From a phage: a DNA stretch of 64,000 bases. The notes under the pieces were generated by a model. That model had not been told where the DNA came from. It saw only the letters and a program-made list of their open reading frames with translations, and made no database searches. The stretch lies in the sequence record PX930852.1; one strand, written 5' to 3'. Position 1 is the first letter of the stretch; each line of letters starts with the position of its first letter. A program made the position numbers and the translations under genes. This document shows, one piece after another, positions 42,214-42,300 of this stretch.

Positions 42214-42300
42214 AGAGGTCTGAAGTTGTGCCGCTAACTCAACTCCGTGGAATTTGTTACGGTCTTCAGTTGACTCAAAGCGGTCTTTCACTTGACCTCT
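42214..42300 (-). ncRNA. tRNA-sized structured element lacking canonical T-loop (candidate ncRNA or degenerate tRNA)
   Basis: 87-nt slot between adjacent tRNAs; perfect 7-bp terminal inverted repeat agaggtc/gacctct; internal hairpins; no TTCGAA-type T-loop. Confidence 0.3.

Follow-up and report, generated by a model that had tools for sequence, protein, structure and literature searches.

A conserved gene for a structured small RNA without an Rfam family, in the tRNA array of Felix O1-like phages

Phage tRNA clusters can carry RNAs that are not tRNAs. In T4, rnaC (species 1) and rnaD (species 2) are tRNA-sized or slightly larger and stand in same-strand tandem with the tRNAs, rnaD and rnaC being arranged head to tail after tRNA-Arg with spacers of 1-6 nt, and both are probably cut out by the enzymes that process the tRNAs. 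In bacteria, the spacer RNAs of tRNA operons (e.g. 3'ETS-leuZ) are functional by-products of precursor processing that act in trans; they are short, largely unstructured sponges acting by base pairing. Y RNAs and YrlA (RF00019 and RF02553, with Yrl1 and Yrl2 of the Thermus phage phiLo) are RNAs of 80-130 nt whose ends are paired. Here, we focus on an 87-nt element that lies between tRNA-Val and tRNA-Thr in a 64,000-nt stretch of phage DNA (sequence record PX930852.1), the whole of which we call the window. This element is a conserved structured small-RNA gene whose family is not in Rfam, and while non-tRNA RNAs in phage tRNA clusters have precedents, its fold and its sequence have none.

The element shares the layout of the T4 RNAs, since it is on the same strand as the tRNAs and is separated from them by 4 and 5 nt. 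It differs in that T4 rnaC ends in a canonical T-arm (GGGUUCGAAUCCC), whereas the element has no T-arm. No homology in sequence or structure was found to rnaC or rnaD, and the best match of our covariance model R1 in the T4 region (7.8 bits, E 1.8) is noise; where T4-like phages have DUF7338, the region after their tRNAs is not homologous to the element either. Compared with RNAs of the 3'ETS-leuZ type, the element is predicted to adopt a self-contained pseudoknotted fold, and no target was detected for it. Like Y RNAs, it has paired ends, with GGUC/GACC in the stem, and its gene block includes the gene of a Ro60 homologue; unlike Y RNAs and YrlA, it has no CGAA/GNCGAA motif, no mimic of a T or D arm and no Rfam match, it is not adjacent to the Ro60-like gene, its conserved part is the interior and not a Ro-binding stem, and it occurs in a phage devoid of Ro60. 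Finally, it resembles a tRNA (RF00005) or a minihelix by its tRNA slot and by an outline like that of stacked acceptor and T arms, with a terminal stem of 7 bp, two bases after it (A8, A9) and a hairpin that has its 3' strand set against that of the terminal stem. It is unlike a tRNA in having no T-loop, no D-arm, no recognisable anticodon arm and no encoded CCA, and its hairpin, with 7 bp and an 11-nt loop, is unlike a T-arm.

The Felix O1-like phages are classics of phage typing and phage therapy, and Bas63, a model phage of the BASEL collection, carries the element, which makes the readings discussed here directly testable. A conserved and probably pseudoknotted RNA in this place adds a new RNA family and indicates that the 'gaps' of phage tRNA arrays can hold selected genes.

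Location, identity and conservation of the element

The window comes from a Felixounavirus (a Felix O1-like phage), and its tRNA region is 100% identical to that of Felixounavirus NRG857CP1. All 25 tRNA genes that ARAGORN detects, from 39.8 to 45.0 kb, are on the minus strand, and the element and its neighbours are as follows:

42214..42300, minus strand: the element, an 87-nt structured non-coding RNA gene
42305..42380, minus strand: tRNA-Thr(UGU) (ARAGORN), upstream neighbour in the RNA sense, CCA encoded
42134..42208, minus strand: tRNA-Val(UAC) (ARAGORN), downstream neighbour of the element in the RNA sense

We number the element in the RNA sense, position i being window coordinate 42301-i. 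The Thr-Val gap of 96 nt reads, in the tRNA sense, as a 4-nt spacer (AUUC), the 87-nt element and a 5-nt spacer (UUCAC), and these spacers are equal in length to the inter-tRNA spacers of the array. On the plus strand, AGAGGTC stands at 42214-42220 and GACCTCT at 42294-42300, with CCGT at 42245-42248 and ACGG at 42259-42262. The original prediction, a short note made from the letters of this DNA, had described a tRNA-sized structured element filling the slot between tRNA-Val and tRNA-Thr, closed by a 7-bp AGAGGTC/GACCTCT repeat and devoid of a TTCGAA-type T-loop; ARAGORN and the sequence agree with the slot, its ends and the missing T-loop, and the view of a non-tRNA structured element in a tRNA slot is supported. 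Both tRNA-Thr and tRNA-Val end in ACCA; the element, whose 3' flank is UUCAC, does not end in an encoded CCA. The phage records that we inspected either leave the slot without annotation or run a doubtful coding sequence across it.

The covariance-model search that the same prediction had proposed (Rfam tRNA, Y RNA and tmRNA) was run, and the element matches none of these families. At gathering thresholds, no tRNA, tmRNA, Y_RNA or YrlA match falls on it, and this holds at E<=10 over the 6-kb array, where the sole YrlA match (E 8.4) overlaps true tRNAs at 40738-40860. When a 104-nt slice was searched alone at E<=10, it returned only three noise matches (snoR101, sR4 and IRES_KSHV) and no riboswitch family. 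ARAGORN reports no tRNA at 42209-42304 and no tmRNA, and neither the T-loop consensus UUCRANY nor an encoded 3' CCA is found in the element. The proposal of a highly divergent tRNA is not supported, as no tRNA model scores the element at E<=10 and no CCA is encoded. The element matches no described RNA family; our covariance model R1 detects it with 111 bits (E 6.5e-28), as a single copy in the window.

The element is found in about 260 phage records with 80-100% identity, as well as in IMG/VR, Logan and ENA contigs, with one copy per genome. Its identity among Felixounavirus, Mooglevirus, Suspvirus and relatives from metagenomes is 93-98% (93% between the window and contigs L103 and L112), and it is at least as conserved as the neighbouring tRNAs: between the window and Mooglevirus, the element is 98% identical, tRNA-Thr 75% and tRNA-Val 88%. 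It is also present in Avunavirus (Av-05 and 19-1-2), which belongs to a different subfamily, where it follows tRNA-Gly and not tRNA-Thr. There, positions 27-53 are identical to those of the Felix-like phages and the closing stem is altered on both sides, from AGAGGUC/GACCUCU to AGAUGUC/GACAUCU. A scan of metagenomes and genomes with a 22-base pattern found new Felix-like variants, two 16-mers scanned in IMG/VR gave only chance matches beyond the known phages, and in E. coli genomes one match was obtained, of 24 nt in a prophage (E = 3). The element is absent from Kolesnikvirus, in which tRNA-Val and tRNA-Thr are 9 nt apart with nothing of the kind between them; the syntenic region that we examined there has neither the element nor a Ro60-like gene. 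In contig L099, the Ro60-like gene is kept and the Thr-to-Gln block is lost.

Two side observations concern this part of the array. Among close relatives, tRNA-Thr and tRNA-Val each occur as two alleles (relative to the copy in the window, about 75-76% and 84-88% identical), and tRNA-Gly, tRNA-Leu(CAA) and the element are nearly identical where the Thr and Val alleles differ, which suggests a cassette-like swapping of single tRNA genes. In the Yersinia phage vB_YenM_P778 (L067, 13958-14110), the Thr/Val slot holds a very acidic 42-codon open reading frame with a ribosome-binding site.

Covariation and the predicted fold

A comparison of related phages for compensatory changes, also proposed in the original prediction, was made on alignment A5, which contains 37 copies of the element and 23 distinct sequences, and such changes were found. 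The element has a minimum free energy of -29.4 to -30 kcal/mol (z -3.7 to -3.9), a stability that 0 of 200 shuffles reached. Its parts, in the order of their description, are the following:

42294..42300, minus strand: P1 5' strand, element 1-7, AGAGGUC, pairing with 42214-42220
42214..42220, minus strand: P1 3' strand, element 81-87, GACCUCU
42284..42293, minus strand: purine-rich joiner, element 8-17, AAGUGAAAGA
42280..42283, minus strand: P2 5' strand, element 18-21, CCGC, pairing with GCGG at 42231-42234
42231..42234, minus strand: P2 3' strand, element 67-70, GCGG, within the Hb loop
42248..42274, minus strand: nearly invariant core, element 27-53, GUCAACUGAAGACCGUAACAAAUUCCA, 27 nt
42240..42246, minus strand: Hb 5' strand, element 55-61, GGAGUUG, pairing with 42222-42228
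42222..42228, minus strand: Hb 3' strand, element 73-79, CAACUUC, one nucleotide (A80) before the P1 3' strand

In P1, 94% of the alignment cells are paired and two pairs are changed on both sides, namely 2:86 (G-C to U-A in L103) and 4:84 (G-C to U-A in Avunavirus, G·U in L113). In P2, all cells are paired and one pair is changed on both sides, 20:68, which goes from G-C through G·U (L129) to A-U (L108/L109). All 161 cells of Hb are paired, and its substitutions never disrupt pairing: pair 57:77 is A-U, G-C or G·U, pair 56:78 is G·U, G-C or A-U, pair 55:79 is G-C or G·U, and pair 59:75 is U-A or U·G. Over the three helices, 94% of the cells are paired, a proportion that falls to 29-42% once the 3' partners are shifted along, and four pairs with a double change are observed where shuffles lead one to expect 0.6, none of 500 shuffles reaching four. 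At the level of sequence comparison, covariation supports the three helices P1, P2 and Hb. The variable positions sit in the predicted loops and joiners of this model, and the core varies at positions 41, 42 and 50 only, each time in a single one of the 23 distinct sequences. These helices also identify the strand, because G·U cells number 24 in the tRNA sense against 1 favouring the opposite strand (own tally): the RNA is that of the tRNA-sense strand.

Not all the predicted pairs fared as well. The letters of the CCGT..ACGG hairpin of the original prediction are present; as a real helix it is contradicted, since CCGU/ACGG is broken by three independent changes, G41A (L058), G56A (wV8) and U42C with G56A (L103). 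The outer pairs of an extended hairpin (16:71, 23:66, 26:64, 28:62 and 9:77) are repeatedly broken as well, and we rejected both. This extended hairpin would keep P1 and P2 and replace Hb by the helices CAACU/AGUUG and CCGU/ACGG. As the 3' strand of P2 is within the Hb loop, P2 and Hb can coexist only as a pseudoknot, and it is this predicted fold of P1, Hb and P2 that we favour over the extended hairpin; the RNA may also alternate between the two. In Avunavirus, the fold that contains Hb is also the thermodynamic optimum, the hairpin being 1-3 kcal/mol worse.

Release by tRNA processing and the rival readings

In the reading that we favour, with a probability of about 0.55, the element is the gene of a trans-acting, protein-binding structured small RNA that is released by tRNA processing. 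We infer its transcription, its processing, its stability and its action in trans as follows. The element would be transcribed from the minus strand within a polycistronic tRNA precursor, and the best promoter upstream of it is:

43583..43611, minus strand: sigma70-like promoter, TTGACA-17-TATAGT, 11/12 matches

This is P45, which had been predicted for Felix O1 (PMC3185647). No terminator-like site was found on the minus strand between this promoter and the element, so the element should belong to the tRNA precursor; no acceptable -10/-35 pair was found inside the element itself. A stable RNA of about 87-92 nt would then most likely be released by the enzymes that excise the neighbouring tRNAs: RNase P cleavage at the 5' end of tRNA-Val would set the 3' trailer, the 3'-end maturation of tRNA-Thr would set the 5' side, and a few extra bases would be left on an RNA whose two ends the 7-bp closing stem would shield. 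P1 and the abutting 3' hairpin Hb would give it an outline like that of a tRNA acceptor/T-arm minihelix, and P2 (CCGC/GCGG) would link the loop of Hb with the 5' region and so form a pseudoknot, unless P2 is part of the competing extended hairpin. This scaffold would display the nearly invariant 27-nt segment as its working surface, which would bind a specific protein in trans, the candidate partners being a host tRNA-handling or defence factor, or the Ro60-like protein of the phage itself.

Several points weigh against this reading. The ends and the stability of the transcript are inferred. Kolesnikvirus, L099 and the P778-like phages do without the element, which makes it dispensable in some backgrounds. 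For a trans-acting RNA, antisense targets were sought and rejected: complementarity to the element in the window is near chance, with four 11-nt matches against about two expected by our own estimate, and the one E. coli prophage match is insignificant. As to the fold, the thermodynamic optimum of the Felix-like copies is a plain extended hairpin (-29.4 kcal/mol, against -21.8 with Hb forced), so the case for the pseudoknot is a purely comparative one; the covariation of P2 amounts to one double change and one intermediate; and the tree behind these comparisons is shallow, with essentially two deep lineages and few intermediates.

The most interesting live alternative, which we hold to be rather unlikely, makes the element a cofactor of the Ro60-like protein, whose gene heads the tRNA array, 2.9 kb and 17 tRNAs away from the element:

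45190..46605, minus strand: Ro60-like protein gene, 471 aa, Pfam DUF2828 and DUF7788, phrog_850 'RNA-binding protein'

The AlphaFold model of this protein has a pLDDT of 89.9, and its top 11 fold matches in the PDB are all Ro60/TROVE proteins, matched over the full length of the model, among them the Ro60 of Thermus phage phiLo, Xenopus Ro60 and Deinococcus Rsr (E ~1e-8, best TM-scores 0.54-0.62). Judged by this model, the protein is a true full-length structural homologue of Ro60, and the earlier label of a Ro60-like neighbour was well chosen. It is 98% identical to Bas63 gp130, which, according to a preprint, counters the ppl defence system, and the authors of this preprint speculate that Y RNAs are among the 'tRNA genes' downstream of it. 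In Bas63, the element lies without annotation between bas63_0150 and bas63_0151. The element is therefore a testable candidate for a question of the literature, namely which RNA, if any, works with the Ro60-like protein that counters ppl, and the comparative data already limit this idea. As a side observation, homologues of the Ro60-like gene were found by tblastn in 710 phage records, whose hosts include Vibrio, Aeromonas, Campylobacter, Listeria, Staphylococcus, Enterococcus and Bacillus, along with mycobacteriophages.

More precisely, the element would be a Y RNA-like cofactor that binds the Ro60-like protein through its 5'/3' stem and GGUCAAGUG, and that tethers or gates the protein and aids its anti-defence function, a proposal that can only be tentative. 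Besides the Ro60 homologue at the head of the array and the suggestion made for gp130, it draws on the size of the element, 87 nt being within the 80-130 nt of Y RNAs, and on a stem that joins its 5' and 3' ends. Alone among the folded non-tRNA gaps, the element fills a tRNA-sized slot with tRNA-like spacers and shows covariation across lineages. The Ro-binding motif near the 5' end is GNCGAAN0-1G in bacteria and phages and GGUCCGA in animals (PMC4201824). In its place, the element has GGUCAAG (GGUCGAG in Suspvirus), and P1 with the joiner reads GGUCAAGUG, which bears a loose likeness to the Ro-binding GGUCCGAAG: AAG comes after the GGUC/GACC of P1, and the result differs by one or two bases from GGUCCGAAG and GNCGAAG. 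Among the phages that bear Ro60, the sole change in positions 3-15 is A8G in Suspvirus; these positions are altered in Avunavirus, the one lineage without Ro60.

The distribution speaks against such a partnership. Indeed, the complete genome of Av-05 has the element with its core intact and no Ro60-like gene (tblastn, E<=10), and conversely two covariance models find no element in the P778-like phages, whose Ro60-like protein is about 53-55% identical in the same synteny, nor in L099, where it is 63% identical. A regular-expression scan of both strands from 39 to 47.5 kb finds no GNCGAAN0-1G, Rfam Y_RNA and YrlA do not match, T and D arms are lacking, and the conservation is reversed with respect to Y RNAs, the interior being invariant and the basal stem varying with compensation. 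The distance of 2.9 kb and 17 tRNAs to the Ro60-like gene adds to this. Of the earlier idea of a Y RNA-like partner for the neighbouring gene, the presence of that gene in the same block stands; the distribution in Av-05, the P778-like phages and L099, together with the absent motif, weakens the rest. A variant that we regard as speculative to the same degree would see in the element a pseudoknotted, non-canonical 'Y RNA' cofactor of gp130-type proteins, whose core recruits or sequesters a host RNA-handling or defence factor and works without Ro60 in Avunavirus. If true, a Ro60 cofactor of this kind would represent a new class among the anti-defence RNAs of phages.

In other Ro60-like loci, a scan for GNCGAA/GGUCAAG used a pattern too short to inform. 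Separately, four distant Ro60-like loci (L061-L064) share AAAAAATAGACGAAGGATTACAT about 745 nt downstream of the Ro60-like gene; this sequence contains the Y-RNA motif GNCGAA, and a canonical Y RNA may be encoded there.

A second alternative, in our judgement less likely again, is that the element acts in cis within the precursor, as a conformational switch, as a leader that senses a ligand or as a signal for processing or antitermination, and controls the downstream tRNAs and two genes that follow:

41713-41955, minus strand: orf80 (phrog_14202)
41159-41716, minus strand: DUF7338 membrane protein, 185 aa

The element has two mutually exclusive folds, in which the duplicated CAACU (29-33 and 73-77) competes for AGUUG (57-61); in Avunavirus, the two are nearly iso-energetic (-19.7 to -21.3 against -22.5 kcal/mol). 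An invariant core within a pseudoknot is typical of aptamers. In Avunavirus, the element lies about 45 nt upstream of the start of phrog_14202, which is followed by DUF7338 (77% identical in protein sequence), both homologues coming directly after the element, and the same genes are downstream in the window. This suggests that the element and the phrog_14202/DUF7338 block moved together between phage lineages. Yet three tRNAs lie between the element and these genes in Felix-like phages, and their excision would cut the link; many of the phages that bear the element have no orf80, no DUF7338 or neither. A strict linkage is thus rejected: Mooglevirus is without DUF7338, many Felix-like phages are without orf80 and some are without both, and T4-like phages with DUF7338 are without the element. 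Nor do we find a terminator, a U-tract or an occluded ribosome-binding site after the element, or a match to a riboswitch family, and in Felix-like phages the hairpin is favoured by about 8 kcal/mol, so that a balanced switch is not evident there.

HDV-like 'theta' ribozymes are found next to phage tRNAs, and a compact pseudoknotted fold with an invariant core at 4-5 nt from tRNA ends could bring to mind a self-cleaving ribozyme that helps to cut the tRNA precursor. We consider this very improbable: hammerhead, HDV, twister, pistol and hatchet are all missing from the Rfam matches at E<=10 on the array or the slice, the order of the helix strands is unlike the HDV topology, and the Val and Thr tRNAs of Kolesnikvirus are 9 nt apart with no such element.

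Two further readings are scarcely credible. The element could be a decayed tRNA pseudogene, which its tRNA slot and its tRNA-like outline of terminal stem and abutting hairpin would recall and for which the pseudo-tRNAs reported in the Felix O1 literature would be a precedent, or no more than a spacer or an RNase III hairpin whose sequence plays no specific role, its long imperfect hairpin resembling phage RNase III sites; the conservation data largely refute this, because the element is 93-98% identical where the flanking functional tRNA alleles are only 75-88% identical, and its 27-nt core common to two phage subfamilies, its compensatory changes in three helices and its lack of detectable tRNA similarity point the same way. 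The last reading, hardly better placed, is that of a DNA-level palindrome (a recombination, homing-endonuclease or mobile inverted-repeat site) or of a tiny protein gene: the 87 bp do form an imperfect palindrome in an array invaded by homing endonucleases, and short open reading frames cross it on both strands, some records annotating a coding sequence there, but the G·U cells favour one RNA strand by 24 to 1, the single copy per genome and the absence of a target-site duplication led us to reject a mobile inverted repeat, and coding is refuted by variants that differ by 1-nt indels at element 22-24, which put both candidate frames out of register (a 29-codon GTG frame in the tRNA sense and a 24-codon frame on the opposite strand).

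Other features of the tRNA array

The antisense of the core (42249-42272, plus strand) would be translated as GICYGLQL, a sequence that class I glutamine amidotransferases have as their nucleophile motif. Exact matches to the 22-base core pattern in metagenomes and in bacterial and archaeal genomes include real amidotransferase genes, and the window has no glutamine amidotransferase gene. This antisense reading may be a coincidence or a captured gene fragment.

A motif of about 23 nt, TT(T/G)ACAGAAGACC(G/A)WWT(A/G)CAGCAA, occurs in four minus-strand copies at 44140, 44227, 44687 and 44854, and it may serve as a promoter specific to the phage, as an operator or as an RNA motif. The core of the element shares GAAGACCGT with two of these four copies. 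With 16 copies in the window where 5.8 are expected, the heptamer GAAGACC is overrepresented.

Several other parts of the array are also structured or resemble tRNAs. Two tRNA-sized gaps (44608-44695 and 44773-44863, minus strand) contain paralogous hairpins with A/U-rich loops, each starting with the motif of about 23 nt, and their stems differ by compensatory changes (AGACCGU/ACGGUCU against AGACCAA/UUGGUCU, and UUAC/GUAA against UGAC/GUCA). Just downstream of tRNA-Leu(UAG) in the RNA sense, 42712-42800 (minus strand) forms a near-perfect hairpin of about 90 nt (minimum free energy -37.6 kcal/mol, z -4.5), which the Rfam models of plant microRNAs match below threshold. Weak signals are found at 43380-43685 (minus strand), where tmRNA and permuted-tmRNA models match with E 0.004-0.01, below the gathering score, and overlap the promoter-like site at 43611-43583. 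At 43077-43151 (minus strand), there is a tRNA-like fold to which the tRNA-Sec model gives only 23 bits. Finally, the Rfam tRNA model detects a tRNA at 43300-43378 (minus strand, 31.7 bits) that ARAGORN missed and that is annotated in relatives as tRNA-Arg(TCT).

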